Of a stretch of DNA of 32,000 nucleotides, positions 1-27,648 are shown piece by piece. This DNA comes from Chlamydiota bacterium (GTDB lineage Bacteria > Auribacterota > JACPWU01): contig JACPWU010000026.1 of NCBI GenBank assembly GCA_016196885.1, positions 1-32,000 on the forward strand, given 5' to 3'. The position numbers were made by a program, and so were the translations under genes. Position 1 is the first letter of the stretch. Each line of letters begins with the position of its first letter. The notes beneath the pieces were generated by a model, which was not told the origin of the DNA, ran no database searches, and saw only the letters and a list, made by a program, of their open reading frames with translations.

Positions 1-11
1 CGAACAAAGAC

Positions 12-1392: not shown

Positions 1393-1431
1393 CAATAATG
1401 TCCAAAAAAATCAAGCTCAAGTTATTCACAA

Positions 1432-1523
1432 GTGGAACAGTGGAACAAAAGTGGAACAAGCCCTTTGTCCCACTTTCAGGCCGATAAATACTGGGCCGAA
1501 GCCCAAAGTGGAACAGTGGAACA
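1432..1523 (+). repeat. Iteron-like cluster of GTGGAACA repeats between the replication remnant and the integrase
   Basis: Exact GTGGAACA starts at 1432, 1440, 1451, 1508 and 1516, all direct. A one-mismatch inverted copy (TTGTCCCAC) lies at 1465-1473. Confidence 0.8.
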
Positions 1524-1546
1524 AAAAAAGGTAGGGGTATTAAAAA

Positions 1547-3220
1547 ATGAGTCCCGAACACCACATCCAAAGATATTTAGAAGAAACGAAGCAGAATATC
1601 CAGAATGAATCCATCTTTGGAATGAAACGAAATGCCCTCAGGCATTACCTAGCCTTCCTAAACAAAGAAGGACAAACATCTTTAGATGTTTCAAGCGATT
1701 TGATCCATCGCTTTAGAGAAAGTATGTATTTTAATCTTAACTACAGCACATCGGCAATATGGACCTACACAAAAGCTCTAAGAGAATTTTACGAACATCT
1801 CAAATCCCACAACATCATTAATGAAAACCCAGTGAAAGTCTGTATCCTCAAGAAAACACCCGTAAGGGAACGTCATTACACAGACGAAGAAATCATCAGA
1901 GCCTACCTCATCAGCGTTCGACCCTACATGAACCGTCTCAGCATTGAAAAAGAGGTGTCATACAGCTGGAAAAGGATCAAAACCATTCTAAAGCGACACG
2001 ACTGGACATTAAAGAATCTGGACAGAGCTCATCTTGAAACCATCGCAAAAGAACTAGACCGATATCCAGGCCAGCACGGCCTACTCCTCAACTACCCAAC
2101 TCGAATCAGAACATTTAACATGTTAAGAGAACTCCTAAGATGGATGAAAAGAAACGGCCATAGGAATCTCGATCCTGGACGTGCGTTTAGATATCATTTT
2201 AGTCCAACGAGCCATGAGCGGGTGATCGAGAAACCGCCCGTTTTTGTGTTATGGCAAGACCATCTTCTGCGCTACATGAGAGAGTGCAGAATCAATTTAA
2301 GACCCACAACCACCCGGACGCGAGAATATCATTTAAGAACATTTTTTGAATTCCTCACCGAACAAAACATCCAAGATATCCAAGAGATCACAACAGAAGC
2401 CCTGGAGTCCTATAGAACCCTTATTTACGAAAACATACACTGGGCTGAATCCACTAAATATGCGAAGACGGGAACAGCCAGATACTTCATCGATTATCTA
2501 GAGAGAACAAATCAAATTTTGATAAACCCTGCTCGCAAAATAATCTGGCCCTATCGCCACGATGGGCTCCCTACACGACTCATGACACAACAAGATGTAA
2601 AAACTTTACTGGGTGCATTTGGCCCCTCATCAGCAACTAGCTTACGCAATCGCACCATTTTTGAAGTCATGTACTCAAGTGGCTTAAGGGCGTCGGAGGC
2701 GGGTGGAATTAGGCTAGAGGATATCAACTTTCAAGAAGGACTCCTTAAAGTACAAAATCCAAAAGGAGGAAAGAGCTTTCAAAGAGTTGTTCCTATTGGG
2801 AAAATGGCACTCGAGTGGATCCAACGTTATCTCAAAGAAGGTAGAACACACTTTATTGCGCTACCCAGCAATGAACAATATCTTTTTCTCTCATCCACAG
2901 GAAAACCCATCACATCTCACACCATCAATGGAATCATGCTGCAAGCAGAAGTAAAACGGGGTCTAAGAAGACACTACAGCTCTCACTCCTGGCGAGTCAC
3001 CTGCGCTACGGAAATGCTAAAAAACCATGCGGACATCCGACATGTCCAGGAGCAATTAGGTCATCGCTCTTTAAACTCAACACAAATCTACACACGACTC
3101 ATGCCCATGGACCTTAAAAAAGTTCATCAAAAAACTCATCCAAGAGAAAAGGAATATAGAAGACTCTATAAAGGCGAAGAAGAAAAAAATATAACGACAT
3201 CGGCCCCAATCGTTGTATAA
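1547..3220 (+). CDS. Tyrosine recombinase / integrase, 557 aa, with two tandem SAM-like core-binding domains
   Basis: The C-terminal catalytic domain has SSGLRASEAGGIRLEDI (Arg), HSWRVTCATEM (H-x-x-R) and LGHRSLNSTQIYTR (His...Tyr). Two N-terminal segments (aa ~1-105 and ~235-335) both fit the phage-integrase N-terminal SAM-like pattern ending in ...NP. The ATG is preceded by AGGTAGGGG. Confidence 0.9.
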   Translation: MSPEHHIQRYLEETKQNIQNESIFGMKRNALRHYLAFLNKEGQTSLDVSSDLIHRFRESMYFNLNYSTSAIWTYTKALREFYEHLKSHNIINENPVKVCILKKTPVRERHYTDEEIIRAYLISVRPYMNRLSIEKEVSYSWKRIKTILKRHDWTLKNLDRAHLETIAKELDRYPGQHGLLLNYPTRIRTFNMLRELLRWMKRNGHRNLDPGRAFRYHFSPTSHERVIEKPPVFVLWQDHLLRYMRECRINLRPTTTRTREYHLRTFFEFLTEQNIQDIQEITTEALESYRTLIYENIHWAESTKYAKTGTARYFIDYLERTNQILINPARKIIWPYRHDGLPTRLMTQQDVKTLLGAFGPSSATSLRNRTIFEVMYSSGLRASEAGGIRLEDINFQEGLLKVQNPKGGKSFQRVVPIGKMALEWIQRYLKEGRTHFIALPSNEQYLFLSSTGKPITSHTINGIMLQAEVKRGLRRHYSSHSWRVTCATEMLKNHADIRHVQEQLGHRSLNSTQIYTRLMPMDLKKVHQKTHPREKEYRRLYKGEEEKNITTSAPIVV

Positions 3221-3247
3221 TCTGGATCTTATTTAGCGAGGGGGTTC

Positions 3248-6200
3248 ATGCAACAGATTTTATCTAGTCTCCTAGCCGCAGTACAAATCTTCTGGGCCAT
3301 GCCCATTGACTTAAAAGCTGTTCAACAAAACCAAGCCAGTTCCATCAACCAAAGCGTTATCAGTGAAGAAGAAAACATAAAACCCCAGCCCCAAAATCTC
3401 GAAAAACAGCAGGGATTTATCACTTTTGAGATCAAAAATGACAGCTTAATCAATGAACACAGGGAAATGACGAACTTGGTAAGCGCATTAGACCCGAACG
3501 GAATCATGGGAAGAATCGCAGGCATCGCCTCCAGCGTCATCATGACCGTAGCGGGAAGCGCCATCGCAGGCCCCTTAGGCGCAGCCGTCATGTCGAGCCT
3601 CAACAGCATCAGCCAGGGCGTCATCGCAGGCCAAGACATGAGCACCATCCTCAAAGGAGCCGCGATCAACTTTGCCGTCACACTCATCACAGCAGGAGTG
3701 GCACACGGCGTAGAATCGGCCCTGGGAGCCACGACACAAACACTAGGCCAAGCCATGACCGCGCCAGCGTTCACGCAAGCGGCAGCCCAAGCGGCAGGAA
3801 CCACGGTCACCGGCCTCGCCCTCCAATCCGCAATGAAACAAATCTTCACCCGAACCCTGCTCACCTTTGCCGGAGACAAACTGGGCGTAGTAGGAAGCAA
3901 CATCGTAGGAGGCGTCATCACAGGCGCCTTAACCGGCGACCCCACACAAATCGTACTAGGAGCCATTAAAGGCACAGCCTCAGGCTACATTCAGAAAGGC
4001 CTAGGTAACAGCGTAGGAGCCCAATTCCTAAGTGCCGCGATCAGTGGCGTCACCGACACCGTCATACAAGTAGCTGGAACGAAAATGGTCGCAGACATCA
4101 AAGAAGGCATAAACCGCATGAAACACAACTGGACCGCTCGAAGCCAAATCCCGGATGGAGCCACCGCCCTAACAAACAGCAAAGGCTACATCACAAGCTA
4201 TGAAACAAAAACAGAAAACGGAACCGCGAAATACATCTACAACACTGAAACAAAAACCTACAACAGCGAACCCTTATACATAAAACGAGACGACGCAACA
4301 CTCACGACAGCGACAGCATTAAATAGCCCCTCAATGACGGTCGCAAGCCTAAACCCCATAACCCTCACCGTCACCGGCTCCACAAGACACAACAACGAAA
4401 TAGGAGCCACAGAAACATATGATCGCCTAGGCAACTTCATCGAAGCCATCCCCGACAATCAAATACCGATCTACAACGACTCTGGAGAACTCATCGCCAC
4501 AAAGCTACCATTATCCATGATGACACTTGGAATGGGACAAGACATATACTTCTCACCCATAACCCCTCCATCTCCCCTTAACTTAAGGGGAGGGGAAACG
4601 ACTCCATCAAGCGAGCCCCCCTCTTTAGTTCAAAGAGGGGCTGGGGGAGTTAGCCTTGAAGGCGGCCAAATGCTGGGCCAAGTCCCCATGAGCGTAGAAC
4701 CCGTTATCCAGCATGGAACTCTTCTAGGCTCCGCAAGGATCGAAGACGATGGAACAAGAACCTACTACAACACAAGTGGGGACACCTTATATCGTCTTCT
4801 ACCCAATGCAGAATTTACAATCAGCCCCTTAAACAAAATCGTTCAATACACCACAGACCTCAAAGGCTCAAACATCTACGACCTCCAAGGAAATCAAATC
4901 CAATACATCCCAACTGGGGCTGTAGGAACAGAGCTTAACGGCAACCTCGCATCCTACAGAAGAACACAAAGCGTAGAGGGAATCATCCACGTCGAATGGT
5001 TCGACAAAAATGGAGTCAGCGTCCCACTAGATGAGGCATTGTCAGGACTCGAAACAGGGCTCAACTTAGTGTCGGACTTCACTCAACAAAAAATAAATCA
5101 GACGGCAGAACTTGGAAAACAAATTTACACAAACTGGCTTGAAGGCATTCAACAAGAACAAGAAAAAAAGGACACCCTCATTTACCAAGCCAAAGAATAC
5201 TTCCGAGATAGAACAAAAGCAATCGCGGATTATTTTGGTTCAGACAACTTCAACAACACGCTCTCTAATGGACTCGACCAAGCGTACAACATATTGAAGT
5301 ACCCAGCAGGCCTTGGGAACATAATCATGGGAACGGTTGTGGGTGCGAAAGAATATTTAGGGATGACAGATGAATGGCAAAGCCGGAACTACAATGAGCT
5401 TAAGAGTGATGAACACCCTGGCTTTCAATTTGGAAGAACTGTCATCGGTCCCGTTACTGGAAACCTCATCGTAGACAGAGTCAACCTAGAAAAAGCAATG
5501 GACCCGCAGCTGTCCACATTAGAAAGAATAGGAGCAGCCTCAGGAGTTTTTGGCCATGTCATCATCACGGCTTTGGGAGCCGATGCACTCTTAGAAGGAA
5601 TAATGGGAAGAGCAGCAAGCGCAGCTGCAACTAAGACCGAACAAATCGCAGAAGTAGCACATACGGGCTACAAACTCCTCACCAAAAGCCACATCACAGG
5701 AGCTGTCTTAAATGGTGCAGTAGGATTCTTGAGTGTGTATAACGACGATGCATCATCAAAAGAAATAATTGCAAAAACTATTACCATGGCGGGGTTGGGG
5801 TTGGTGGGAAATCCTATTGAATTTATGTTTAAAACATCGGCGAGTAAAGCACTGAGTGGTGGGGTGGTGGGGGGCGTTGGGAACGCCGCAGTTCAAGCTG
5901 CGGAAATATATGCTGAGACAGGATCACTTAAAGAAGTGAGGACATTGAGGAATTATGACATTGCTAGTGTAGGTCAGTCTACAATTATGGGTATTTTTTC
6001 CCACGGCTTCACCCAATCCATCTTCCAAGGTCAGGCTGAATCCCATCCCTATCTGACTCAAGCGGCTAAGCAGGCGTTCAAGCAAGCCTACGGGCCTTTC
6101 GTGAAAGTATATGCACCTGCCTTGATAGTGTTTCTTGATCCAGTCACCAGTGTTCAAGCCTACGAAAGAGACGTACATTTAGATGTGACAAATTATCTAG

Positions 6201-7114
6201 CGATCAAGGGAGGTATGAGTCCTCAAGACGCCGTGGTTGTAGCGAAAGCAAATCAATGGACAGATGACGATCCTAAAAGAAGTCCATGGGCCAGTGAGGA
6301 AGCAAGACGCTTATACCATTTTGTAACACCTGCTAGACTAGCAGAGTTGAGAAAAGATGCATTTGACAGTCTGGATGCGGAAAAATTTGGGACATATCTT
6401 CATGCCTTTCAGGACTCTTTCTCCCATGCCGGATATGGCCCCAAAGTGGGGCACTTATTTAAACGTCATGAGCCTGATAAAACATATAATGATCCAGAAA
6501 AAGCGATGTTGATGGAACAAGGGACATACCAGGAGATATTACGATTTCAAAGCGCAAGAGGGTATGATGTCGCGGATCGGTTCCGAGAGTTATACGAGAG
6601 GATGAATACTTTTAACCGTGCTAAAGATGATGATGTAAAGAAGGGTGCTCTTGCTGGAGGAGTTATCCTTTCCCTGCTTATGATGGAAAAAAACGGATCG
6701 AAGAAATCGGGGGCAGAAGAAGCCAAGATTAAGGCTCGTGTGAAAGGATTTTGGTCAGTTTGGCAGTCGAGGCGATATGGGATGATGTGGAATTATATAT
6801 CTGCCAGCGTAAAGGAAGGGAATGAAAACGATCCGAAGAAATATGTTGAATACATAAAGAAATTTAAATTTGAAAAAGGATTTAGAAACTTTTCATACAC
6901 AGTGAAAGACATTAATACTGAAGGTCCTAAAGCACTGGTAAGGGTAGAATATAGCTTTATTGCAAATGACAAACTCAATAAAGGAGCAGAAGGCCAAATT
7001 TGGATTTATGAGAATAGCGATTGGTACTATAACGACAACCTCTATGCCGAGTCAGATGGAGAGTTTTATGGTGATCGGGCAGGAAAGAGGCGGTGGGAAT
7101 CGTTAAGTAAATGA
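3248..7114 (+). CDS. Large polymorphic-toxin-like protein (1288 aa): glycine-zipper tracts, degenerate YD-like repeats, zinc-phospholipase C / P1-nuclease-like C-terminal domain, NTF2-like tail
   Basis: ATG 3248 follows GAGGGGG. Residues ~85-290 and ~760-890 are Gly/Ala/Ser/Thr/Val-rich hydrophobic GxxxG/AxxxA tracts. Residues ~385-600 contain ETYDRLGNFIEAI, IYNDSGELIAT, YYNTSGDTLYRL, NIYDLQGNQIQYI and WFDKNGVSV. Residues ~970-1090 read VHLDVTNYLA...WTDDDP...YHFVTP...FGTYLHAFQDSFSHAGY...GHLFKRHEPD, which matches the His/Asp ligand order of zinc-dependent PLC. That it is coding is near certain; the functional call is tentative. Confidence 0.65.
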   Translation: MQQILSSLLAAVQIFWAMPIDLKAVQQNQASSINQSVISEEENIKPQPQNLEKQQGFITFEIKNDSLINEHREMTNLVSALDPNGIMGRIAGIASSVIMTVAGSAIAGPLGAAVMSSLNSISQGVIAGQDMSTILKGAAINFAVTLITAGVAHGVESALGATTQTLGQAMTAPAFTQAAAQAAGTTVTGLALQSAMKQIFTRTLLTFAGDKLGVVGSNIVGGVITGALTGDPTQIVLGAIKGTASGYIQKGLGNSVGAQFLSAAISGVTDTVIQVAGTKMVADIKEGINRMKHNWTARSQIPDGATALTNSKGYITSYETKTENGTAKYIYNTETKTYNSEPLYIKRDDATLTTATALNSPSMTVASLNPITLTVTGSTRHNNEIGATETYDRLGNFIEAIPDNQIPIYNDSGELIATKLPLSMMTLGMGQDIYFSPITPPSPLNLRGGETTPSSEPPSLVQRGAGGVSLEGGQMLGQVPMSVEPVIQHGTLLGSARIEDDGTRTYYNTSGDTLYRLLPNAEFTISPLNKIVQYTTDLKGSNIYDLQGNQIQYIPTGAVGTELNGNLASYRRTQSVEGIIHVEWFDKNGVSVPLDEALSGLETGLNLVSDFTQQKINQTAELGKQIYTNWLEGIQQEQEKKDTLIYQAKEYFRDRTKAIADYFGSDNFNNTLSNGLDQAYNILKYPAGLGNIIMGTVVGAKEYLGMTDEWQSRNYNELKSDEHPGFQFGRTVIGPVTGNLIVDRVNLEKAMDPQLSTLERIGAASGVFGHVIITALGADALLEGIMGRAASAAATKTEQIAEVAHTGYKLLTKSHITGAVLNGAVGFLSVYNDDASSKEIIAKTITMAGLGLVGNPIEFMFKTSASKALSGGVVGGVGNAAVQAAEIYAETGSLKEVRTLRNYDIASVGQSTIMGIFSHGFTQSIFQGQAESHPYLTQAAKQAFKQAYGPFVKVYAPALIVFLDPVTSVQAYERDVHLDVTNYLAIKGGMSPQDAVVVAKANQWTDDDPKRSPWASEEARRLYHFVTPARLAELRKDAFDSLDAEKFGTYLHAFQDSFSHAGYGPKVGHLFKRHEPDKTYNDPEKAMLMEQGTYQEILRFQSARGYDVADRFRELYERMNTFNRAKDDDVKKGALAGGVILSLLMMEKNGSKKSGAEEAKIKARVKGFWSVWQSRRYGMMWNYISASVKEGNENDPKKYVEYIKKFKFEKGFRNFSYTVKDINTEGPKALVRVEYSFIANDKLNKGAEGQIWIYENSDWYYNDNLYAESDGEFYGDRAGKRRWESLSK
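4572..4640. repeat. Two perfect palindromes embedded in-frame in the toxin gene
   Basis: CTCCCCTTAA-C-TTAAGGGGAG lies at 4572-4592 (10-bp arms). CCCCTCTTT-AGTTC-AAAGAGGGG lies at 4618-4640 (9-bp arms). Together they encode PLNLRGG...PPSLVQRGAGG. Confidence 0.85.
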
Positions 7115-7129
7115 TCCAAGAAGAGTAAC

Positions 7130-7621
7130 ATGCCTCCCCAAACAGATTATCTCTCCAAAGATTTTGTCTTCATGTACCCCAGCCGATTTCTAAATTGGAA
7201 ATGGGCGTTTATGCCGATTAATGTAGTTTTGTTAGGAATATTTTTCATTATAGTTATCGGAAGTTATGTTGAGGTTGGAGCCGAATCTCTAGAATTAACG
7301 TGGGACAATTGGGCGGTCCCACTTTTTTTCTTAATAGGAGATCTCTACTTCACAGGTAACTATTTTCGTCAAGCCCGCTGGCCGTTGCAATTTCAAAGAG
7401 ATGAAGATGGTCTAACGTGTATTCCAATTTGGGGAAAGCGTTGGAAGATTAAATGGGAAGACATTAGAAGAATAGAAGATGTGCCGCGTAAATGGTCGAT
7501 TAAAATCTATGCAAATGTTCCCTGGAGAAAGAGGTATTATTTTTATATTCAAAAAGATCTTGACGGTTTCAAGTACTTGATGGAAACGATTCGAGAGCAT
7601 GTGAGAGAGTGTGAGATTTAA
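7130..7621 (+). CDS. Membrane protein, candidate immunity protein for the 1288-aa toxin (163 aa)
   Basis: It starts 15 nt after the toxin stop. It has two hydrophobic helices (AFMPINVVLLGIFFIIVIGSYV, WAVPLFFLIGDLYF) followed by a basic soluble domain. The role is assigned by position only. Confidence 0.5.
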   Translation: MPPQTDYLSKDFVFMYPSRFLNWKWAFMPINVVLLGIFFIIVIGSYVEVGAESLELTWDNWAVPLFFLIGDLYFTGNYFRQARWPLQFQRDEDGLTCIPIWGKRWKIKWEDIRRIEDVPRKWSIKIYANVPWRKRYYFYIQKDLDGFKYLMETIREHVRECEI

Positions 7622-7675
7622 CACATAAAGGAAGCTCATCAAAAACATCACCCCAGGGAAAAAGACGAGAAATAA

Positions 7676-7710
7676 TTTTTTATTTTAGCTACCGCCGCTA
7701 AAATAAAAAA
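7676..7710. repeat. Perfect 14-bp AT-rich hairpin at the boundary of orphan cassette 1
   Basis: TTTTTTATTTTAGC (7676-7689), loop TACCGCC, GCTAAAATAAAAAA (7697-7710). The ATG of the next ORF starts at the last base of the stem. Confidence 0.85.
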
Positions 7711-14344: not shown

Positions 14345-15238
14345 ATGACAAAAACAAAATCACGAGCAAAAACTTTCACCCTTCAAGAGATGATTCTCTG
14401 TCTGGAATCCTACTGGTCCAGTCAAGGCTGCGTCTTGGGCCAGGCCTATGATGTAGAAGTGGGGGCCGGGACTTCCAATCCGCTCACCTTTTTTAAGGTA
14501 TTGGGAAGTGATCCTTGGCGGGTGGCCTATGTACAGCCTTCTCGCCGTCCGGCCGATGGTCGCTATGGCGACAATCCCAATCGCGTGTATCAGCATCACC
14601 AATATCAAGTGATTTTGAAACCTGCTCCTTTTGATGTTCAGGATCTCTATTTGGCCAGTCTCGAGGCGATTGGAATTGATCCTTACCAGCATGACATTCG
14701 ATTTGTGGAGGACGATTGGGAATCTCCCTCTTTGGGCGCGAATGGCTTGGGTTGGGAGGTTTGGTGCGACGGGATGGAAATCACTCAATTTACTTATTTT
14801 CAGCAAATGGGTGGGATTGAACTTCATCCCATTTCTGTGGAACTCACCTATGGCTTAGAGCGTATTGCCATGTATCTTCAAAATGTAGAAAATGTTTTTG
14901 ATTTAAAATGGAATGAAAAATTTTCTTATGGGGAGCTGCGTAAACAATGGGAATATGAATTTTCGCGCTTTAATTTTGAAGAGGCAAGCGCGCAAAGTTA
15001 TTTTCATCTTTTTGACGAGAGGGAGAAAGAAGCCAAAAAACTTTTGGAATTGGGATTGGTTTTCCCGGCTTATGACTCCGTGCTCAAGTGCTCTCATATT
15101 TTTAACATCCTAGATTCAAGGCGGGCCATCAGTGTGACAGAGAGAACGGGCTTTATCACAAGAATTCGTGGGATTGCTAAGGGGTGTGCGCAGAAATACT
15201 TGGAAAATCAAAATGCAAATATCAAAATGCAAAATTAA
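14345..15238 (+). CDS. glyQ: Glycine--tRNA ligase alpha subunit
   Basis: Highly conserved GlyQ sequence throughout (YWSSQGC...[15 protein letters not shown]...[19 protein letters not shown]...). Confidence 0.97.
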
Positions 15239-15274
15239 GGAATTTTTTATTAATAAAACTACATTAATTTTGCT

Positions 15275-15396
15275 ATGAAAGTTCTTTTTGTAGTCGCCCG
15301 ATTCATCGGGCAGCCCCATAAATGGGGCGACTACAAAAAGAACTTTCATCGCACACGATGATCTCGAAAGATCATTGAAATTGATATTTGATTTTT
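15275..15396 (+). repeat. Dispersed composite repeat, long copy B: T-shaped palindrome plus conserved 52-nt tail, between glyQ and glyS
   Basis: 15275-15299 and 15325-15349 are perfectly complementary (25 bp). Alternatively, a 21-bp stem carries two mini-hairpins: GCCCG-ATTCAT-CGGGC (15296-15311) and GCCCC-ATAAAT-GGGGC (15313-15328). The tail 15345-15396 matches 9723-9774 at 47/52. Confidence 0.9.
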
Positions 15397-15427
15397 GAAT
15401 TTAAACCATACGATTAAGCAGTTGTTT

Positions 15428-17566
15428 ATGACTAGAAAAATAACCAAAGAAATGAAAAGAGAAAATCTGCTTGTAGAAATCGGAACGGAAGAAATTCCAG
15501 CCCGTTTTTTAAAAGAGGCTTCGCTTCTTTTTAGAAATCTTCTGGAAGCTTTTCTCAAAGAAAATCACATTTCATATGACGAAAAAAATGTGAAGAATCT
15601 TTTCACGCCTCGACGTCTGACTCTTTTTATTCCGGAAATGATTTTGATGCAAAGTGAAAAAGTCGAAAAAGTAAAAGGGCCGCCTGTTTCAATTGCCTTA
15701 GATGCCCAGGGTGTTTGGACACAGGCCGCGCAGGCGTTTGCCTCCAAGAATGGGGTATCTCTGGATCAATTGATTCGTGAAAAAACAGAAAAAGGGGAAT
15801 ACCTTTTTGCCGAAAAGAAAATCAGGGGGCGTCTGACGGCAGTCCTTCTCAAAGAAAATTTGGGAACCCTTGTTCAAAAAATTCGATTTCCCAAATCCAT
15901 GCGCTGGGAGAATCGCGACATTTATTTTGCAAGACCCATTCGGTGGCTGATCGCCTTGTTGGGTTCAAAAGTCATTCCCTTTCAAGTGGGGGACCTCACG
16001 GCGGGTCGCGTGAGTTGGGGCTATCGCTGGGCTCAAAATCCGAAGGTGACGATTCCTCGGGCTAATCTTTCTCTTTATCAAAAGCTTCTCAAGTCAAAAG
16101 GCGTTTATGTGGATATTGCAGAAAGGTTAAATTTGATTCACCAGAATGCAAAAAAGGTTTTGGGAACTTCTTTAAAAATTTCTCCAGATGACGAGGATCT
16201 CTTGATGGAAGTCGCCAATTTGGTGGAATTTCCGAACGCGGCCGTTGGCCTTTTTGAAAAAAGATTTCTCTCGCTTCCTCCCCAAGTTCTTTCGATGGCA
16301 GTGAAGTATCACCAAAAGTATATACCGATTTATTCGAATGGAGAATTGACGGACCGCTTCTTGACGGTTTTTAACGGGCCCCGTTCCATTGTTCGCACGG
16401 TCCTTCTGGGGAATGAACGTGTGTTGAGGGCGAGGCTCACCGATGCTGCCTTTTTCTGGGAGCAAGATCAGAAGAAGAAATTGTCGGAAAGGGTAGAGGA
16501 TCTTAAACATGTTGTCTTTCAAGAGAAATTGGGGACTTATTTTGATAAGAAAGAAAGATTACTTCATTTTGTTGATCTCTTGAAGGATCAGTTAAAAAAT
16601 GAAAATGAAAGTAACTCCCCCAACCCCTCTTCATTTGAAAAATTAAAAAGAGCTATCAATCTTTGCAAGGCTGATTTAGTGACCTCCATGGTGGGCGAGT
16701 TTCCTGCGCTCCAGGGGATTATCGGTTCGGAATATGCGCATCTATCCGGAGAAGATCGAGAAGTGGCCCAGGCCATTGGAGAGCATTACCTTCCCCTCAG
16801 TGGCTCGGAGGGAAATTTACCCAAGACCCTTCTTGGATCGTATCTTGCCTTTCTGGATAAATTAGACAGCGTCGTGGCTTCTTTTAAAATGGGGCTGATG
16901 CCTACAGGTTCTCAAGATCCCTACGGTCTTCGGCGTCTGGGTTCAGGGCTTTTGAGAATCCTTTATGAGAAGGGGATTTCTCTCACTCTCACCCTCTTTA
17001 TTGAACGGGGTTTAAAGCAGGCCCCTATCAAGGATATTTCACCTGAGCCCCTTCTTAAATTCTTCGCAGAGCGTCTTGAAAATTTATTTTTATCTTTGGG
17101 ATTTCACCACGATTTGGTTCGGGCCGTTGTGGCTCAGCAATCCCAAAATCCTTCTAAGGCTTATCAGATTTTGAAAGAGCTGAAAGGTGTTCAGGAAGAA
17201 CCCTTTTTTCAAGAGGCGATCACCCTTGTCGAGAGAACTTCCAATATTTTAAAGGGAGCCCCAGTTCAAGATGGCTCGGTAGATGAGACTTTGCTCAAAG
17301 AACCTCAGGAAATAGAGCTTTACAGGACCTATCAATCCAACTATGATAGCGTGTTTCATTTGGCCCAAACGGGGGCCTTTGCCAAGGCGACTTCAGAGTA
17401 TGCAAGGATTTTTGGTCCCTGTGTTCATGCCTTTTTTGACAAGGTATTGGTGAATGTGAAGGAAGAGCCCGTACGTCAGAATCGTTTTCGATTGTTGAAG
17501 AAAATTCACGGGCTTTATGCAAATCAGATAGCAGATATTTCGAAATTAGGGAAAATACTGTCGTGA
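15428..17566 (+). CDS. glyS: Glycine--tRNA ligase beta subunit
   Basis: GlyS N-terminus LLVEIGTEEIPARF. I prefer ATG 15428 (or 15452) to the TTG at 15395, which lies inside the repeat. Confidence 0.95.
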   Translation: MTRKITKEMKRENLLVEIGTEEIPARFLKEASLLFRNLLEAFLKENHISYDEKNVKNLFTPRRLTLFIPEMILMQSEKVEKVKGPPVSIALDAQGVWTQAAQAFASKNGVSLDQLIREKTEKGEYLFAEKKIRGRLTAVLLKENLGTLVQKIRFPKSMRWENRDIYFARPIRWLIALLGSKVIPFQVGDLTAGRVSWGYRWAQNPKVTIPRANLSLYQKLLKSKGVYVDIAERLNLIHQNAKKVLGTSLKISPDDEDLLMEVANLVEFPNAAVGLFEKRFLSLPPQVLSMAVKYHQKYIPIYSNGELTDRFLTVFNGPRSIVRTVLLGNERVLRARLTDAAFFWEQDQKKKLSERVEDLKHVVFQEKLGTYFDKKERLLHFVDLLKDQLKNENESNSPNPSSFEKLKRAINLCKADLVTSMVGEFPALQGIIGSEYAHLSGEDREVAQAIGEHYLPLSGSEGNLPKTLLGSYLAFLDKLDSVVASFKMGLMPTGSQDPYGLRRLGSGLLRILYEKGISLTLTLFIERGLKQAPIKDISPEPLLKFFAERLENLFLSLGFHHDLVRAVVAQQSQNPSKAYQILKELKGVQEEPFFQEAITLVERTSNILKGAPVQDGSVDETLLKEPQEIELYRTYQSNYDSVFHLAQTGAFAKATSEYARIFGPCVHAFFDKVLVNVKEEPVRQNRFRLLKKIHGLYANQIADISKLGKILS

Positions 17567-17644
17567 GTCGTCGGTCGTGAGTCGTGAGTTTTAAAGGTGT
17601 TATTTTTTACTCACGACTCACCCCTCACGACTCACGACAGTATT
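17554..17644. repeat. TCGTGAG-family heptad hairpin, copy 1 (4 units per arm)
   Basis: Left arm AATACTG TCGTGAG TCGTCGG TCGTGAG TCGTGAG T (17554-17589). Loop TTTAAAGGTGTTATTTTTT. Right arm 17609-17644. 32 of 36 positions are complementary. The glyS stop TGA 17564-17566 lies in the left arm. Confidence 0.9.
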
Positions 17645-17665
17645 TAAAAACGGAGGATTTTTTTC

Positions 17666-20332
17666 ATGCAGAAGACGGAATCGGTGGCAACAAAAACTTC
17701 AAATCAATCCGTGAAATTTGTCTATTTTTTTGGGGGCGGCAAAGCTGAAGGCGATGCCAAAATGAAAGATTTGCTCGGCGGCAAAGGAGCCAATCTGGCC
17801 GAGATGACCCATTTAGGAATTCCTGTTCCGCCGGGTTTCACGATTTCGACTCAAGCCTGCCAACTCTATTATGAAAGGTCTCTTCAGTTTCCGCAGGGGC
17901 TCAAGGGAGAAGTGGAATCTGCCTTGCATCATTTAGAAGGCCTCATGGGGAAGCGCCTGGGCGATCCTCAGGATCCGCTTCTGGTGTCGGTGCGTTCAGG
18001 GGCTGCCGTTTCCATGCCTGGAATGATGGACACGGTTCTTAACTTGGGACTCAATTCTCAATCGGTGAATGGGCTTGCCACCAAAACTGGGAATGAACGC
18101 TTCGCATGGGACTCTTATCGCCGCTTTATTCAAATGTTTGGAGATGTGGTGATGGAAGTAGAGCATCACCGTTTTGAAGAGGCCTTGACTCAGATCAAGG
18201 AGAAAAAGGGGGTTCATTTCGATCATGAATTGGACGCCGTTGATTTAAAAGAATTGGTCAGTCAATATAAAAGAATCGTCCGAGAAATCAGGGGCCAGGA
18301 TTTTCCAGAAAGCCCTATAGACCAGCTTTGGCTGGCCATCAGTGCTGTGTTTGGATCTTGGAACAATTCTCGTGCGATTAAATACCGTCAATTGAATGAA
18401 ATTCGAGGCCTTTTCGGAACGGCCGTCAATATTCAGTCCATGGTGTTTGGAAACATGGGAAATACCTCCGGTACCGGCGTTGCCTTTACACGCAATCCTT
18501 CCACAGGAGAGAATAAACTCTACGGCGAATTTTTGATGAATGCGCAGGGTGAAGATGTGGTAGCCGGCATTCGTACGCCCCTTCCTTTGGCGGAGTTGAA
18601 AAAAGTGATGTCTCAAGTTTACGATCAATTCATGGATATTTCTAAAAAGTTGGAGCAGCATTACAAGGACATGCAGGATATTGAATTCACCATTCAGGAA
18701 GGGAAGCTCTATCTTTTGCAGACCCGTTCTGGGAAAAGAACCGCTCATGCGGCGGTCCGAGTCGCGGTGGAGGCTTTTAAGGAGGGGCTCATTGACCGAA
18801 AAACTGCGATTCTTCGTGTCAATCCGACCCAGCTTGATCAGCTTTTACATCCCATGATTCATTCCAAGACAAAATATCAAGTGGCCGCGAAAGGTCTTCC
18901 CGCCTCGCCCGGCGCTGCCGTGGGGCAAATTGTTTTTTCAGCCTTGAAAGCTGAGGAATGGGATGAGCAAGGTAAAAAAGTGATTTTGGTTCGCTCCGAG
19001 ACTTCTCCCGAAGACATTGGCGGAATGGCTGTGGCTCAGGGGATTTTAACCGCTCGCGGTGGAATGACTTCTCATGCGGCCGTGGTCGCTCGAGGCATGG
19101 GGAAATGCTGTGTCGCTGGCTGTCAGGACTTGGCGGTGGATGAGAGTGGCGAGAGTTGCCGCATAGGCAAGAAGGTTTTAAAGGAAGGGGATGAAATTAC
19201 CCTCAATGGTTCCACGGGAGAGGTCATTTTGGGGGCTGTCCCTCTGGTGAGTCCCGAATTTAGCGGTGAATTCGGAGAACTCATGAAATGGGCCGATGAA
19301 ATCCGCCGCCTCAAGATTCGCACCAATGCAGATACGCCCAACGATTGCAAAGTGGCTCGCCGCTTCGGTGCAGAGGGAATCGGTTTGTGCCGTACTGAAC
19401 ATATGTTTTTTGAAGGGGATCGCATTGACCCTGTTCGAGAGATGATTTTGGCGGAAGATCGGGTCGGCCGGGAAAAGGCTTTGGCCAAACTTTTACCTAT
19501 TCAGAAGGGAGATTTCATCGGAATTTTTGAGGAAATGGAGGGACTCCCTGTCACCATCCGTCTTCTGGATCCCCCCTTGCATGAATTTATTCCTCACACG
19601 GATGAAGAAATTCGAAATCTTTCTAAAAAAATAAATGTCTCTGCGGAAAAACTAAAGGCCAAGAGTGAGTCCTTGAAAGAATTTAATCCCATGTTGGGTC
19701 ATCGAGGATGCAGACTCGGAATCAGTTTCCCAGAAATTTACAAGATGCAAACGCAGGCCATTTTCGAAGCGGCCTGTGAAGTCTCCAAAAAAGGGGTTCG
19801 AGTCATTCCGGAAGTGATGATTCCCTTGGTGGGAGACGTGAATGAATTAAAGGTGCTCAGAACGGATCTGGAAGAAGTGGCCAGGGACGTGATGGAAAAG
19901 GCCCATGCCAAAATAGAATATTCCTTTGGCACGATGATTGAAATTCCCCGGGCAGCTTTAACGGCCGATGCCATTGCCGAGGTCGCGCAGTTTTTCTCTT
20001 TTGGAACCAATGATCTGACCCAGATGACATTCGGTTTCAGCCGGGACGACGCCGGTGTTTTCTTGAAGGATTATTTGGAGAAGGGAATTTTACAGGATGA
20101 TCCCTTTCAGGTCCTGGATCGAAGCGGAGTCGGAGCCATGATGAAAATTGCCATTGAAAAGGGCCGATCTACCAATCCCAAGATTAAGCTCGGTATTTGC
20201 GGAGAACATGGTGGGAATCCTCCTTCGATTGAATTCTGCCATATGTTGGGCATGGATTATGTTAGTTGCTCCCCTTACCGGGTTCCCATTGCCAGGCTTG
20301 CAGCGGCTCATGCGCAGCTTAAAAATGGTTGA
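17666..20332 (+). CDS. ppdK: Pyruvate, phosphate dikinase
   Basis: Full-length PPDK signature ([10 protein letters not shown], the [13 protein letters not shown] catalytic His loop, GICGEHGG). GGAGGA lies 8 nt upstream of the ATG. Confidence 0.97.
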
Positions 20333-20346
20333 TTCGTTCTTGGGAT

Positions 20347-20445
20347 CGTCGTTTGTCGTTCGCTATTGGTATTTCGTGAAATACAAATAAATAAGTGATA
20401 GAATAGCCTTCATACGAAATACGAATGACGAGATACGAGCGACGA
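20347..20445. repeat. Heptad-periodic hairpin (TCGTNNN-type x5 / NNNACGA x5) ending at the sigma-factor start codon
   Basis: Left arm TCGTCGT TTGTCGT TCGCTAT TGGTATT TCGTGAA (20347-20381). Right arm CATACGA AATACGA ATGACGA GATACGA GCGACGA (20411-20445). The arms are partly complementary. Confidence 0.8.
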
Positions 20446-20447
20446 AA

Positions 20448-21830: not shown

Positions 21831-21833
21831 TAA

Positions 21834-21925
21834 AGCAGGGATTAGGGTTAAGGGTGTAGGGTTTTAGGGAGTAAGGATTTTTATTAATGAAATGCTTATG
21901 CCCTACACCCTTAACCCTAATCCCT
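21834..21925. repeat. NNNAGGG-family heptad hairpin / G-quadruplex motif, copy 1
   Basis: Perfect 25-bp stem (21837-21861 with 21901-21925) and a 39-nt loop containing AGTAAGGATTTTTATT. There are five GGG tracts spaced 4-5 nt on the + strand. It sits between the apt stop and the 3' end of tRNA-Arg. Confidence 0.9.
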
Positions 21926-21942
21926 ATCCCCTGCCTTAAATC

Positions 21943-22017
21943 TGCCCCCGAGACGAGTCGAACGTCCGACCTAGGCTTTAGGAAAGCCTCGCTCTATCCA
22001 AGCTGAGCTACGGGGGC
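21943..22017 (-). tRNA. tRNA-Arg (anticodon CCU)
   Basis: The reverse complement GCCCCCGTAGCTCAGCTTGGATAGAGCGAGGCTTTCCTAAAGCCTAGGTCGGACGTTCGACTCGTCTCGGGGGCA folds as a cloverleaf. It has a 7-bp acceptor, GCTC/GAGC D stem, AGGCT/AGCCT anticodon stem, loop TTCCTAA and T loop TTCGACT. No CCA is encoded. Confidence 0.9.
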
Positions 22018-24495: not shown

Positions 24496-24566
24496 TGCCG
24501 GATCGTCTAATGGTAGGACCGCAGACTCTGGATCTGTGTATCTAGGTTCGAATCCTAGTCCGGCAG
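24496..24566 (+). tRNA. tRNA-Gln (anticodon CUG)
   Basis: TGCCGGATCGTCTAATGGTAGGACCGCAGACTCTGGATCTGTGTATCTAGGTTCGAATCCTAGTCCGGCAG. Acceptor TGCCGGA/TCCGGCA, anticodon loop CTCTGGA, T arm CTAGG-TTCGAAT-CCTAG. Confidence 0.9.
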
Positions 24567-24574
24567 CTTTTAAA

Positions 24575-24676
24575 GGTAGGGGTTAGGGATTAGGGTGTAG
24601 GGTTTAGGGAGTAAGGATTTTTATTCAGTGAAAAACCTTGTCCCTTCACCCTAAACCCTATACCCTAATCCCTGCA
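24575..24676. repeat. NNNAGGG-family heptad hairpin / G-quadruplex motif, copy 2 (between tRNA-Gln and tRNA-Glu)
   Basis: GGTAGGG GTTAGGG ATTAGGG TGTAGGG TTTAGGG. 25-bp stem (24585-24609 with 24649-24673, one G-T pair). The 39-nt loop begins AGTAAGGATTTTTATT. Confidence 0.9.
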
Positions 24677-24682
24677 TTTTTC

Positions 24683-24755
24683 GGCCCCATCGTCTAGAGG
24701 CCTAGGACATTACCCTCTCAAGGTAGGGACACGGGTTCGAATCCCGTTGGGGCTA
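24683..24755 (+). tRNA. tRNA-Glu (anticodon CUC)
   Basis: GGCCCCATCGTCTAGAGGCCTAGGACATTACCCTCTCAAGGTAGGGACACGGGTTCGAATCCCGTTGGGGCTA. It closely parallels E. coli tRNA-Glu. Anticodon loop CTCTCAA; the G1-U72 pair is a wobble. Confidence 0.85.
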
Positions 24756-24763
24756 GTTTATAA

Positions 24764-24798
24764 AGCAGGGATGAGGGAGAAGGGCGTAGGGTTTAGGG
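24764..24798. repeat. NNNAGGG-family array, copy 3 (solo arm, no complement)
   Basis: AGCAGGG ATGAGGG AGAAGGG CGTAGGG TTTAGGG. It shares the lead-in ATAAAGCAGGGAT with copy 1. Three TATAGAT heptads follow at 24809, 24816 and 24832. Confidence 0.85.
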
Positions 24799-24855
24799 AT
24801 TTTTAAACTATAGATTATAGATCTTTGGTTGTATAGATTTTTTCATCGAGAGTTT

Positions 24856-27582
24856 ATGTCCTTTCATGAATCTTCTTCCTTAAAGAAAGATGTTCGTTTT
24901 CTGACGACGCTCTTAGGCGATGTGATTCGAGAGCAGGAGGGGGAAGACCTTTTTCTTAAGGTCGAAGAAATTCGAAAACTTGCCAAGAAGATTCGAGAAT
25001 GTCCTACAGACGAGAAGATTTCGGAGCAGAAAAGAATCATTCATCAACTCACCCTTGACGAAGCTTATAAAATTGCCAGGGCCTTTACGATTTATTTTCA
25101 ATTGGTGAACATTGCTGAAGAGCGCCATCGGGTTCGCAGGATCCGGTCTTACGAAAAGGACTTGTCGCTTTTTCAAGAGATGTCCCTGCACAAGCTTTTT
25201 CGGGATTTGTCGGAGGCATCTATTTCGAAGGAAGATGTTCAAGGTCTTTTGAAGGAATTGGAAATAGAATTGGTTTTAACCGCTCATCCGACGGAAGTCA
25301 AGCGCAGAACAGTTTTGGATCATCTCTTGAGAATTTCTTCCGTCTTGTCTTCCCTGGAGAGACTCGATGTGACCTTCCCTGAGAAAGAAGAGGCCGTGAG
25401 CCAAATCAAGGAGACGCTTGAGATTTTATGGCAGACAACAGAGGTGCGTCAAAAAAAAGTTGAAGTTTTGGATGAAGTCGAGCAGACCCTTTTTTATTTC
25501 CGGCATACCATTTTAGAATTGATGCCTCGTCTTTATCAGAAAATAGGGAGAGAATTCGAAAGGTTTTATCAGAAGGAATTGCTTTTATTTCCTTCTCTTC
25601 GCTTTGGGTCCTGGGTCGGGTCTGACCGGGATGGGAATCCGAACGTCACACCTGTTGTAAGCCTAAAATCCGTCATGCTTTATCGCAGGTTGATTCTGAG
25701 ACATTATTTGGGCGTTGTCGAAGATTTCATTCGAAGATTTAGTCAGTCTTTGCGCCGCATTTCTGTGAGTGAGGAGCTTTTGAGCTCTTTGAAAATGGAC
25801 AGAAAAAAGATGCCTTCTTTGGCTCGCGAGATGGAGCGTTTTGAGCCCACAGAAGTTTACCGGAAAAAATTCACCTTCATCCATCGGCAGCTCGAAAATA
25901 CCTTGAATCAGAAAAAGTCTGCTTATCCGAGTGAAGAGGTGTTTTTGAAAGATGTTTTGATCGTGAAAAGGAGTTTAGAAGCTCATCAAGGACATTTTGC
26001 TGCCCGAGGGGATTTGGATGACTTGATTTGCAAGATTAAAATTTTTGGTTTTCATTTAGCAAAACTTGATTTCAGGGATCACACAGGAAAGATTCGGAAA
26101 ACGCTCCAAGAGCTTTTTCCAAAAGAAGCTCTCAATGAAGAGATGATTTTGAAAAAAATAAAATCGGGTGAAAAAATACCTTCTCGCTCTTCTCTTTCAC
26201 CTGACGCCAGAGATATTTTAAGTCAGTTGGCGACCCTTCAAAAAAATCAGGAGCTCAACACCCAGGCTTTTGAAAATTATATTTTGAGCATGACAGAAAA
26301 GGCATGCGATGTGCTTTCTTTTTTCTATTTGGCCCAAGGGAGGAAATTGATCAAGGGGGTCGCAGGGCGTGTCAGGGAATCTCGCGTGGGGATTGTCCCT
26401 CTTTTTGAAACGATTGAATCTTTGGATCATGCGCATGAAGTGATGGATCATCTCTTTCAAAATCCGCTCTATCGCTCTTACGTGACATCCAGGGATGATA
26501 TTCAAGAGGTGATGCTGGGTTATTCTGACAGTAGCAAGGATGGAGGATATTTTGCGGCCAATTGGAAAATTTATGAAGCTCAAAAAAGATTGGTTGAAGT
26601 GGCTGAAAGGCATCGGGTCAAGCTTCGTCTTTTTCATGGTAAGGGAGGTACCATTGATCGTGGGGGAGGGGAATCCCATAAGGCCATTTTGGCTCAACCG
26701 GAGGCGGCCGTAGGAGGCCGTATTAAAATGACAGAACAGGGAGAGGTGGTCTCGCAAAAATATGCGAATCCTGTCATTGCCGAGAGAAATTGGGAGCAGC
26801 TCGTCAGTGCGGTGATGGAGGCCCAGCTTATTTCAAGGAAAAAACTCGAGGCAGAGCCTCGCATTGCGGTTTGGGAATCTCGAATGAATCACTTAGCGGA
26901 TTTGTCTTTCCATTTTTATCGGGAATTCATTCTTGGGACTCAGAATTTTTTAGATTTTTATCACCAGGCAACCCCGATTGAAATTTTGAAGGAGACTCGA
27001 ATTGCGTCGCGGCCTCCCTCTCGGATGGATCAAAAGAGTTTCGGGGCCCTTCGGGCCATCCCTTGGGTTTTTAGCTGGGTGCAATCCAGATACATTATTT
27101 CTGCTTGGTATGGGATCGGTCATGCCTTGGAAGCTTATTTGGATGAGCGTGGGAAAGGAGGTCTTGAGGAGCTTCGAGAGATGTATCGCGAATGGCCTTT
27201 TTTTTCTTCCTTGCTAAACAATGCGCAAGTTTCTTTGGCCAAGACGGACCTTTACATTGCTGAGCAATATGCATCCTTGGTAAAAGATGAGAGTTGTCGA
27301 GAGAAAATCCATGAGAAAATTGCCTTAGAGTACAAACGTTCTGTGAAATATGTTTTAGAAATTGCACAGAGTGACGAGCTTCTCAATTTTCATCCCGTTT
27401 TGAAAGAATCCATTCGCTTGAGAAATCCGTATGTGGATCCCTTGAATTACCTTCAGGTGAGATTCTTGAGAGAATCCCGTTCAGAAAAAGATCGCAAGGC
27501 TGAAGGCTTACAAAATAAAAGGAATGAAATTCTTCTTTTGACCGTGAATGGCATTGCGTTTGGAATGAAGAGTACGGGATAA
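24856..27582 (+). CDS. ppc: Phosphoenolpyruvate carboxylase
   Basis: Ppc motifs VLTAHPTE, GYSDSSKDGG, FHGKGGTIDRGGG and the C-terminal ...NGIAFGMKSTG. I prefer ATG 24856 (MSFHESSSLKKDVRFL) over TTG 24829. Confidence 0.96.
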   Translation: MSFHESSSLKKDVRFLTTLLGDVIREQEGEDLFLKVEEIRKLAKKIRECPTDEKISEQKRIIHQLTLDEAYKIARAFTIYFQLVNIAEERHRVRRIRSYEKDLSLFQEMSLHKLFRDLSEASISKEDVQGLLKELEIELVLTAHPTEVKRRTVLDHLLRISSVLSSLERLDVTFPEKEEAVSQIKETLEILWQTTEVRQKKVEVLDEVEQTLFYFRHTILELMPRLYQKIGREFERFYQKELLLFPSLRFGSWVGSDRDGNPNVTPVVSLKSVMLYRRLILRHYLGVVEDFIRRFSQSLRRISVSEELLSSLKMDRKKMPSLAREMERFEPTEVYRKKFTFIHRQLENTLNQKKSAYPSEEVFLKDVLIVKRSLEAHQGHFAARGDLDDLICKIKIFGFHLAKLDFRDHTGKIRKTLQELFPKEALNEEMILKKIKSGEKIPSRSSLSPDARDILSQLATLQKNQELNTQAFENYILSMTEKACDVLSFFYLAQGRKLIKGVAGRVRESRVGIVPLFETIESLDHAHEVMDHLFQNPLYRSYVTSRDDIQEVMLGYSDSSKDGGYFAANWKIYEAQKRLVEVAERHRVKLRLFHGKGGTIDRGGGESHKAILAQPEAAVGGRIKMTEQGEVVSQKYANPVIAERNWEQLVSAVMEAQLISRKKLEAEPRIAVWESRMNHLADLSFHFYREFILGTQNFLDFYHQATPIEILKETRIASRPPSRMDQKSFGALRAIPWVFSWVQSRYIISAWYGIGHALEAYLDERGKGGLEELREMYREWPFFSSLLNNAQVSLAKTDLYIAEQYASLVKDESCREKIHEKIALEYKRSVKYVLEIAQSDELLNFHPVLKESIRLRNPYVDPLNYLQVRFLRESRSEKDRKAEGLQNKRNEILLLTVNGIAFGMKSTG

Positions 27583-27584
27583 AA

Positions 27585-27648
27585 ACAGTCGTGAGCCGTG
27601 AGGGATGAGTCGTGAGTTTTAAAGGTGTTATTTCTTACTCACGACTGT
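27585..27648. repeat. TCGTGAG-family heptad hairpin, copy 2 (right arm truncated to one unit)
   Basis: Left arm ACAG TCGTGAG CCGTGAG GGATGAG TCGTGAG T (27585-27617). The 19-nt loop TTTAAAGGTGTTATTTCTT matches copy 1 at 18/19. The right arm is only ACTCACGACTGT (27637-27648). Confidence 0.9.

Follow-up and report, generated by a model that had tools for sequence, protein, structure and literature searches.

Within operons of Escherichia coli such as malE-malF, repetitive extragenic palindromic (REP) sequences and bacterial interspersed mosaic elements (BIMEs) act as stabilizers of the mRNA. The genomes of heterocystous cyanobacteria are rich in heptamer repeats, the short tandemly repeated repetitive (STRR) elements. 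REP doublets known as REPINs were described by Bertels & Rainey (2011, PMC3116915), and head-to-head (HH) heterodimers of GTAG-tagged REP units by Di Nocera et al. (2013, PMC3733652). In the latter each unit carries the GTAG signature, and two units that have their tags on the outside form an HH dimer; tagged units and HH heterodimers have also been reported in bacteria of the Planctomycetes–Verrucomicrobia–Chlamydiae (PVC) group (PMC3733652). In Anabaena variabilis the GTAG-15 REP dimers are nested in long palindromes of the form ...ATTTGATTnnTGAAA--TTTCAnnAATCAAAT... (PMC3733652). Here we analyse a 32-kb stretch of DNA from a bacterium labelled Chlamydiota (contig JACPWU010000026.1), hereafter called the window, in which an element at 15275-15396 lies between the genes glyQ and glyS. 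We designate this element copy B. We consider it likely that the palindrome between glyQ and glyS is a mobile doublet of the REPIN type, seated in a carrier palindrome that is itself nested in a hairpin of heptad repeats.

The palindrome of copy B is a perfect inverted repeat of 25 bp (15275-15299 and 15325-15349; positions are on the + strand unless stated otherwise), which extends to arms of 41 nt (15271-15311 and 15313-15353) with 90% complementarity. Its minimum-energy fold is T-shaped under both DNA and RNA parameters. A stem of 21 bp carries two small hairpins, GCCCG-ATTCAT-CGGGC and GCCCC-ATAAAT-GGGGC, which flank an unpaired adenine at 15312; the T-shape is favoured over the plain hairpin by a margin of only 2 kcal/mol (-53.8 versus -51.8 kcal/mol with RNA parameters). 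A tail follows the right-hand arm, comprising the linker CGCACACG and a third hairpin (CGATGATCT CGAA AGATCATTG), together 15350-15377. Hairpin 3 has a core of 18 nt (15358-15375) that can be extended to a stem of 9 bp (15356-15377), as it is in the folds. The tail (15345-15400) is identical at 50 of 56 positions to a second site at 9723-9778, part of a related element designated copy A. A 26-mer common to the two tails is found at just two sites within the window, a result that was reached in none of 100 shuffles. The spacer measures 189 nt, from the glyQ stop at 15238 to the earliest ATG in the frame of glyS at 15428, although comparison with relatives suggests that the true start of glyS may be the ATG at 15452. 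The initial annotation of the locus had pointed to the 25-bp repeat, the two mini-hairpins on a 21-bp stem, the third hairpin, a tail nearly identical to 9723-9774 and a gap of 189 nt between the genes, and every one of these features is present as described.

The centre of the palindrome (15290-15334) consists of two inverted GTAG-tagged REP units, GTAGTC-GCCCGATTCATCGGGC, A and GCCCCATAAATGGGGC-GACTAC. The first unit (15290-15311) consists of the GTAG tag, TC and the hairpin h1 (GTAGTC GCCCG ATTCAT CGGGC). The second (15313-15334) is read on the - strand as GTAGTC GCCCC ATTTAT GGGGC, and forms the hairpin h2; the same 22-mer is found in two further copies, C and D, discussed below. A15312 forms the spacer of one nucleotide between the units. 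Each hairpin thus has GTAGTC in front of it on its own strand, + for h1 and - for h2, and both form in the DNA and RNA minimum-energy folds with stems within the range of ~5-13 bp that characterizes REP palindromes. The doublet is enclosed by the outer arms of the carrier palindrome, ATGAAAGTTCTTTTT on the left (15275-15289) and AAAAAGAACTTTCAT on the right (15335-15349), that are perfectly complementary. The T-shape arises because the inverted GTAGT tags pair with each other (GTAGT with ACTAC). A conserved small open reading frame beginning at the ATG of the palindrome was considered and ruled out, as the frames differ between copies A and B.

This explanation of the T-shape bears directly on an analogy that had been drawn at first, with the terminal repeats of parvoviruses such as adeno-associated virus (AAV) and with origins of single-stranded DNA (ssDNA) replicons. 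If the element were the origin or terminal repeat of an integrated replicon of this kind, the A-B-B′-C-C′-A′ topology of a stem with two small arms would be accounted for, together with a centre that is found in flip and flop forms in copies B and C. Yet that topology is the whole of the likeness. A T-shape is an automatic by-product of two inverted tagged REP units, most members of the family described below having a base stem of only 5-7 bp. The element is neither terminal nor carried on an ssDNA genome, but lies within the chromosome between glyQ and glyS, flanked by intact syntenic housekeeping genes. No Rep gene is seen nearby, nor any gene for a Y1/HUH transposase in the window or the related loci, and probes of 18 nt (hairpin 3) and 22 nt (palindrome arm) matched no viral contig. 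The resemblance to the AAV inverted terminal repeat is thus geometric only, and the reading as a replicon end is effectively refuted by the context.

How general is the doublet? A scan of metagenome contigs using GTAGTCGCCCSATNNATSGGGC matched at least 120 contigs, compared with a rough estimate of a few hits expected by chance. Of these contigs 704 kb were examined (L096-L215), and they contain 143 family matches. Among the matches listed, 44 distinct doublets follow the pattern GTAGTY-hairpin-spacer(1-27 nt)-hairpin-RACTAC, and heterodimers make up 41 of them; single units and tandem clusters are also present, and several contigs carry two to four copies. The 22-mer of h1 is the commonest variant (46 of 94 matches in the first 80 metagenome loci), and the exact sequence recurs in L095, in L216 (twice) and in L197. 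Inverted doublets are found in the window at 15290-15334, in copies C and D, and in the HH doublets of the metagenomes. Partner units for a test of pairing were chosen by position only and not by pairing. Pairing in their stems reaches 95%, each of the five stem pairs shows changes on both sides, and none of 500 shuffles reached the score. In 20 unselected partner units GTAGT is invariant, and the loop AT(T/A)(C/T/A)AT is conserved. A suggestion that the G/C swap between h1 and h2 was a one-off compensatory change has been superseded, since heterodimers are the rule in the family. It is the REP doublet, and not the entire 122-nt feature delimited in the initial annotation, that is the most widely recurring unit.

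The family thus has much in common with the REPINs and GTAG-tagged REPs: a short GC-rich hairpin with a 5′ GTAG tag, an inverted pair with its tags outside, partners with different stems separated by 1-27 nt, an extragenic location between co-directional genes, dispersed copies and tandem clusters, and in L197 a transposase gene flanked by the same units. It differs in that the tag is extended to GTAGTY, and in the conserved loop of six nucleotides. The doublet in the window also lies inside a carrier whose arms add 15 perfect base pairs and whose tail is asymmetric, and no gene for a REP-associated tyrosine transposase (RAYT) is seen in the window or the related loci. Neither PMC3733652 (text and supplements, exclusive of its Figure 1 consensus table) nor the wider literature searched yielded sequences of the GTAGTY family. 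Rfam gave nothing relevant for copies A or B even at E <= 10, returning only spurious matches to miRNA hairpins far below gathering scores. The GTAGTY family is thus not in Rfam and did not turn up by its sequence in the literature searched, but the REP/REPIN class to which it belongs is known, and this is not a new type of system.

A link to a transposase is provided by one metagenomic contig, L197. An open reading frame of 137 amino acids (7759-8169) matches Pfam Y1_Tnp (2.8e-9), and its best NCBIfam match is REP_Tyr_transpos (4.4e-19). Doublets of the family border this RAYT-type gene on either side, at 7644-7743 and 8169-8220, and the first flanking unit is the exact h1 22-mer of the window. 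The arrangement is a REPtron. There is a second RAYT-like gene in L100 (4866-5800, with the same sequence in L103; Y1_Tnp 9e-9). The repeats at its flanks belong to another GTAG family, GTAGGGCAAGGCTTTACCCTTGC, and recur in tandem with a period of 84 nt. A GTAGTC-GCCCG unit is found 4 kb away, and since this one contig carries both, several REP families coexist in one organism.

Copies of the larger element are found at other loci. Copy A in the window begins with a short counterpart of a hairpin termed H1 (GCAAAT GAGTAGA ATTTGC, 9655-9673), followed by a degenerate carrier palindrome GATGAAAGAC ... GTCTTCATC (9693-9728) with a possible REP remnant AAATGGG, and by a tail (9723-9778) made up of linker, hairpin 3 (core 9736-9753) and the heptads TTGAAAT TGCATTT TGATTTT. 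Its termini are ATGAAAG...CTTCAT, and the stem is short and bulged, as had been described. We searched copy A for an intact REP unit and none is present; TTTTGG-AAATGGG-AAAC is found where copy B has the doublet. Copy A aligns with what two internal deletions would leave of copy B, so that the earlier reading of an internally deleted derivative is plausible. The sequence fits a decayed copy, for which two short matches are weak evidence.

Copy C was found by searching a protein database with concatenated peptides from the six-frame translation of the element. The single match was MoaE of the genome to which L087 belongs, and the C-terminus of the matched protein is read from copy C. The copy lies directly after moaE in L095 (~650-830; GCA_016196915.1, which also contains L087) and in L216 (~10450-10620; sister assembly GCA_016178055.1). 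Its arm termini, ATGAAAGT/ACTTTCAT, are those of copy B, ATGAAAGT being common to copies A, B and C, as is the 18-nt core of hairpin 3. The tails of copies B and C are identical at 59 of 63 positions (94%), and h1 and h2 with their tags are each identical at 22 of 22. Relative to the tail, the h1-h2 centre of copy C is flipped compared with that of copy B. Copy C does not disrupt moaE, and this possibility was rejected; the gene is intact in L216, and the truncation in L095 results from a deletion of 158 nt inside the gene. The missing segment corresponds to L216 10268-10425 (L095 ~630), and the resulting frameshift makes the reading frame run on into copy C. This loss in GCA_016196915.1 is either a real deletion or an assembly error. 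Copy D (L216 1707-1771) has the same h1/h2 pair with a spacer of 21 nt, without outer arms, hairpin 3, tail or heptads. Thus L216 has two doublets in 20 kb, while there are none in L087, L089 or L091, and the window has one intact and one degenerate copy. An exact 23-mer of the tail gave no match in genome and metagenome contigs, but this probe is too strict, as copy C has TTAAAA in place of TTGAAA.

The disposition of these copies bears on whether the tail, with or without the palindrome, might be a shared cis-regulatory element, a promoter, operator or 5′-UTR RNA, for glyS and the LysM gene that follows copy A. Copies A and B each end 16-32 nt upstream of a start codon on the + strand, and hairpin 3 forms a 7-4-7 palindrome that is followed by TTGAAA resembling a -35 hexamer. 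The sole difference between copies A and B in the extended stem of hairpin 3 is G•U versus A-U, compatible with pairing in RNA, and glyS has lost the translational coupling of its relatives and has no obvious Shine-Dalgarno sequence. The initial annotation had stated that both copies are upstream of + strand genes. This holds for A and B, but in copy C, which is inverted with respect to its neighbouring genes, the tail runs away from mobA, the downstream gene, and into the end of moaE, and copy D lacks a tail altogether. The inverted position of copy C just behind moaE shows that the tail is no promoter linked to the genes that follow it. Moreover, a consensus promoter scan gave no site in either tail (A or B), a promoter based on the TTGAAA of copy A would start transcription at or after the ribosome-binding site, and there is no match to an Rfam family even at E <= 10; the covariance models gave no match to a glyQS T-box or other curated cis-regulatory RNA. 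Finally, the nearest relative keeps both genes without the element. A shared promoter or operator, as had been suggested, is accordingly disfavoured, and we regard regulation of this kind as improbable.

The doublet and its carrier lie within a further hairpin whose arms are tandem heptads. The 5′ array (AAAATCA AAATGCA AATATCA AAATGCA AAATTAA, 15204-15238) has a period of 7 in Tandem Repeats Finder (TRF) and forms the 5′ arm of the outer stem. The 3′ array (TTGAAAT TGATATT TGATTTT TGAATTT, 15377-15403; TRF period 7 at 15381-15402) forms the other arm, and the two are 86% paired (15204-15225 with 15381-15402). The inner part of the heptad hairpin is H1 (GCAAAATTAAGGAATTTTT / AAAACTACATTAATTTTGC, 15229-15273), a 19-nt inverted repeat of 84% complementarity that is present in the minimum-energy fold and includes the stop codon of glyQ. 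In the fold of the complete spacer (15196-15410; -84.9 kcal/mol, z = -11.7) the outer heptad stem encloses H1, the T-shaped palindrome and hairpin 3. The initial annotation had considered neither copy to be heptad-periodic, and had therefore seen a repeat class independent of the heptads. The palindrome and hairpin 3 are indeed not periodic, but the last ~25 nt of what was called the tail are the 3′ heptad array, with a period of 7 by TRF, and the claim of independence fails, copy B being nested inside a heptad hairpin. The last 11 residues of GlyQ are encoded by the 5′ array (15204-15238) and are without counterpart in relatives; the heptad repeat has grown into the glyQ coding region.

Relatives of the window organism show the spacer both with and without these layers. 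A protein database identified the closest GlyQ proteins as those of L087 (86%; GCA_016196915.1, labelled ‘Chlamydiae bacterium’), L091 (80%) and L089/L090 (78%; GCA_964640155.1), and the gene order PhoH-YbeY-DAGK-DUF502-RecO-glyQ-glyS is common to the window organism and these relatives. In L089, L090 and L091 glyS begins 8 nt after glyQ. The spacer in L087 is 244 nt and contains a heptad hairpin of the same family, without the palindrome and without hairpin 3. Empty sites in relatives, which had been proposed as a check on mobility, are thus found at the orthologous position in all four, as 8-nt spacers in three and as a doublet-free hairpin in L087, so that the doublet is polymorphic in presence at this site. 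As L087 has a related heptad hairpin that lacks palindrome and hairpin 3, the spacer probably acquired the heptad hairpin before the lineages of L087 and the window organism diverged, with palindrome and tail following later in the lineage of the window. Short matches between the inner loops of the two spacers, ATAAAT..GGGGCG and TGAAAGTT, may be relics but prove nothing, and homology of the inner loops was not significant. In L087 the LysM gene is bracketed by an inverted repeat of 143 nt with 98% complementarity (2827-2969 and 3844-3986); it may be an invertible or mobile cassette, since LysM is absent from this position in L089.

At four-fold degenerate sites the window organism and L087 agree in only 35% of 550 positions, which corresponds to saturation. 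The identities in the element are therefore not the result of neutral common descent. In the heptad arrays, TTGATATTTGATTTTTG from the 3′ array is 17/17 identical in the orthologous spacer of L087, and 15204-15229 matches 17090-17115 of a different L087 element at 26/26. Such homogenization could be turned into an argument for a different origin, whereby the palindrome is a functionless and immobile inverted duplication, made locally by template switching at a hairpin, and the similarity between copies results from gene conversion among heptad hairpins. The 26/26 and 17/17 identities across species show how highly homogenized these hairpins are, copy A resembles a decaying version, and the 15-bp perfect outer extension of copy B is unique among the 47 doublets examined. 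A local event could account for the outer arms, but not for the core. Another species carries identical REP units at non-orthologous loci although synonymous sites are saturated, the units belong to the family with many metagenomic copies (143 matches listed) and covarying stems, and that family flanks the RAYT gene in L197. As an account of the whole element, local duplication thus seems unlikely to us.

Of the roles first suggested for the element, those of a miniature mobile element and of a substrate for an HUH or RAYT enzyme are therefore favoured by the GTAG-tagged head-to-head units, the widespread family, the RAYT gene of L197 and the empty sites. The account that we consider likely is the following. 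The outermost layer is a hairpin of complementary heptad arrays of the AAAATCA / TGATTTT family, elements of a kind that fill most intergenic regions both in the window organism and in its nearest relative. Within the 3′ arm of this hairpin lies a lineage-specific carrier, ATGAAAG.../...CTTTCAT, with linker CRCACACG, hairpin 3 and TRAAATTG, and at the apex of the carrier a head-to-head heterodimer of GTAG-tagged REP units of the REPIN type. Each REP unit folds upon itself while the inverted GTAGT tags and the carrier arms pair, generating the T-shape. From what is known of characterized REP/REPIN systems, we infer that the doublet is a non-autonomous mobile element. In this organism it would be excised and reinserted as a single-stranded DNA hairpin by a RAYT-type Y1 (HUH) transposase whose gene would lie elsewhere in the genome. 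It would land at the exposed apex of the carrier palindrome in either orientation, which would account for the opposite orientations of the centre among copies. After insertion the element would be transcribed as a very stable intercistronic structure that replaces the 8-nt coupling found in relatives. This structure of ~200 nt would uncouple glyQ from glyS, and may stabilize the upstream message as the REPs of E. coli do.

Several observations weigh against a mobile doublet of this kind. The L197 protein scores 68.8 bits for REP_Tyr_transpos, below the curated cut-off of 80. A search for Y1/HUH transposase genes had been proposed as a check, and found no RAYT gene either in the 32 kb of the window or in the related loci, ~80 kb in all (L087, L089, L091, L095 and L216), the single example flanked by this family being that of metagenomic L197. 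No target-site duplication can be defined, as the flanks are themselves repeats. The window holds only one intact doublet and one degenerate copy. The 15-bp extension that sets copy B apart from the other doublets may have arisen locally rather than by transposition, and neither the carrier nor hairpin 3 was found in any of the 120 metagenome loci.

The exact sequence of the window is matched only in short Logan contigs from three runs. In three samples, independent contigs stop within the palindrome, at 15298 or 15304, and one contig begins again at 15373; others break in or beside repeat hairpins (window 9764 and 17587). These breaks probably reflect loss of coverage at strong hairpins. An attempt to deduce copy number from the break points (15298, 15304, 15373) was dropped, as there are no shared 31-mers to explain the breaks.

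Heptads and doublets are also associated outside the window. Among the metagenome matches listed, a period-7 array is present within 100 nt of 11% of units, compared with 2.4% of random positions, and a period-8 array within 100 nt of 10%, compared with 2.2%; the enrichment is ~4.5-fold for both periods. Some metagenome clusters repeat ‘heptads plus doublet’ every 82-109 nt (e.g. among L100, L105, L113, L163, L165 and L174). We can offer a tentative and rather doubtful generalization, that the three layers might be connected in function and not merely piled up by chance, that the heptad hairpins might be preferred landing pads of, or be generated by, the ssDNA machinery that moves GTAGTY doublets, across many uncultivated bacteria, and that carrier and hairpin 3 might form a second recognition module that moves a composite element of 100-140 nt as a unit.

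In the window itself, long hairpins with complementary tandem heptad arms are found in nearly every intergenic region, and the heptad differs by locus; the units include GTGGAAC, AGCACGA, GTCGTGA, TAGGGTT, GCTGATT and AAAATCA. Such hairpins are found on the + strand numbering at 1393-1546, 10333-10420, 12012-12060, 13455-13525, 14309-14335, 17553-17645, 20333-20447, 21831-21937, 24565-24680, 24760-24800 and 27583-27646. Some of them are dispersed families with conserved loops. The sequences 17553-17618 and 27581-27646 are 86% identical over 66 nt, and each is directly 3′ of a stop codon. The tRNA genes at 21943-22017 (- strand), 24496-24566 (+ strand) and 24683-24755 (+ strand) are each bordered by hairpins of the TAGGGTT family, and the TAGGGTT repeat starts exactly at the tRNA 3′ end. 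In L087 the AAAATCA/TGATTTT heptad hairpins occur at about one per 4 kb (3770-3877, 17088-17197 and 18509-18618, and also 9863-10055 and 2920-3118). There they have a conserved non-heptad core, TTCTAGTGCTATTGCAGGGGAGA, in both orientations, behaviour like that of a miniature inverted-repeat transposable element.

Upstream of copy A lies an accessory island (1-9506), with a primase-like gene, a tyrosine integrase of 557 amino acids (1547-3220), a protein of 1288 amino acids, an RHS-tip-like remnant without an open reading frame (8520-9095) and a TPR protein. The GC skew changes sign near 5000. A heptad array (64-124) is also present inside the coding region of the primase-like gene, and at window position 473, inside this gene, Logan contigs of two samples carry an extra 150 nt (L093 958-1107 and L094 143-292). 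The presence of the integrase raises the question of whether the repeats could be att-like sites of an integrase island (window 1-9500), with hairpin 3 as the core site. The protein of 557 amino acids matches Phage_integrase (7e-40) and lies upstream together with a primase-like gene, copy A is placed at the junction of the accessory region and the conserved LysM-PhoH block, and ATGATCT-CGAA-AGATCAT has the layout of inverted repeat plus spacer that is typical of recombinase core sites. But what copies A and B bracket as direct repeats is a set of syntenic housekeeping genes, from LysM to glyQ, and not the island, whose far end falls beyond the window, and for copy C, located in a molybdenum-cofactor operon, there is no integrase within 10 kb. 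We therefore think it very unlikely that these are attachment sites. An integron attC site was also rejected; the termini ATGAAAG / CTTTCAT lack GTTRRRY, the neighbours are syntenic core genes and the only integrase is 12 kb away.

One of the closest known counterparts of the locus is the GTAG-15 arrangement of Anabaena. Both have REP dimers at the centre of a longer carrier palindrome, carrier arms with TGAAA/TTTCA and ATTTGATT-like motifs, and a host genome rich in heptamer repeats. They come from different phyla and have different REP families. The carrier in the window also has the extra, asymmetric hairpin 3, and its outer layer is a hairpin of tandem heptads. With the REP/BIME elements of E. 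coli the locus shares its position, a palindromic repeat of high stability that separates two cistrons of the same operon, but the structure in the window is much larger (~200 nt, -85 kcal/mol) and is composite.

Our analysis accounts for a striking structure by a known class of mechanism, and removes more exotic readings such as an ssDNA origin or an operator. The literature already contains REPs, REPINs and HH heterodimers, as well as REP dimers lying inside longer palindromes, in PVC bacteria and Anabaena among others (PMC3733652); what is unusual here is the nesting in heptad hairpins, and the modest association of the family as a whole with heptad arrays. A REP family has been defined by its GTAGTY tag, its covarying stem of 5 bp, its AT..AT loop and its head-to-head heterodimers, and it is common in environmental metagenomes. 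The one example of a REPtron, in L197, offers a concrete pair of substrate and enzyme. The locus between glyQ and glyS is a case in which insertion of a repeat has broken a tight coupling of two genes that is kept by relatives. It also draws attention to a Chlamydiae-labelled lineage of uncultured bacteria whose intergenic regions are dominated by heptad-repeat hairpins, and these deserve a study of their own.

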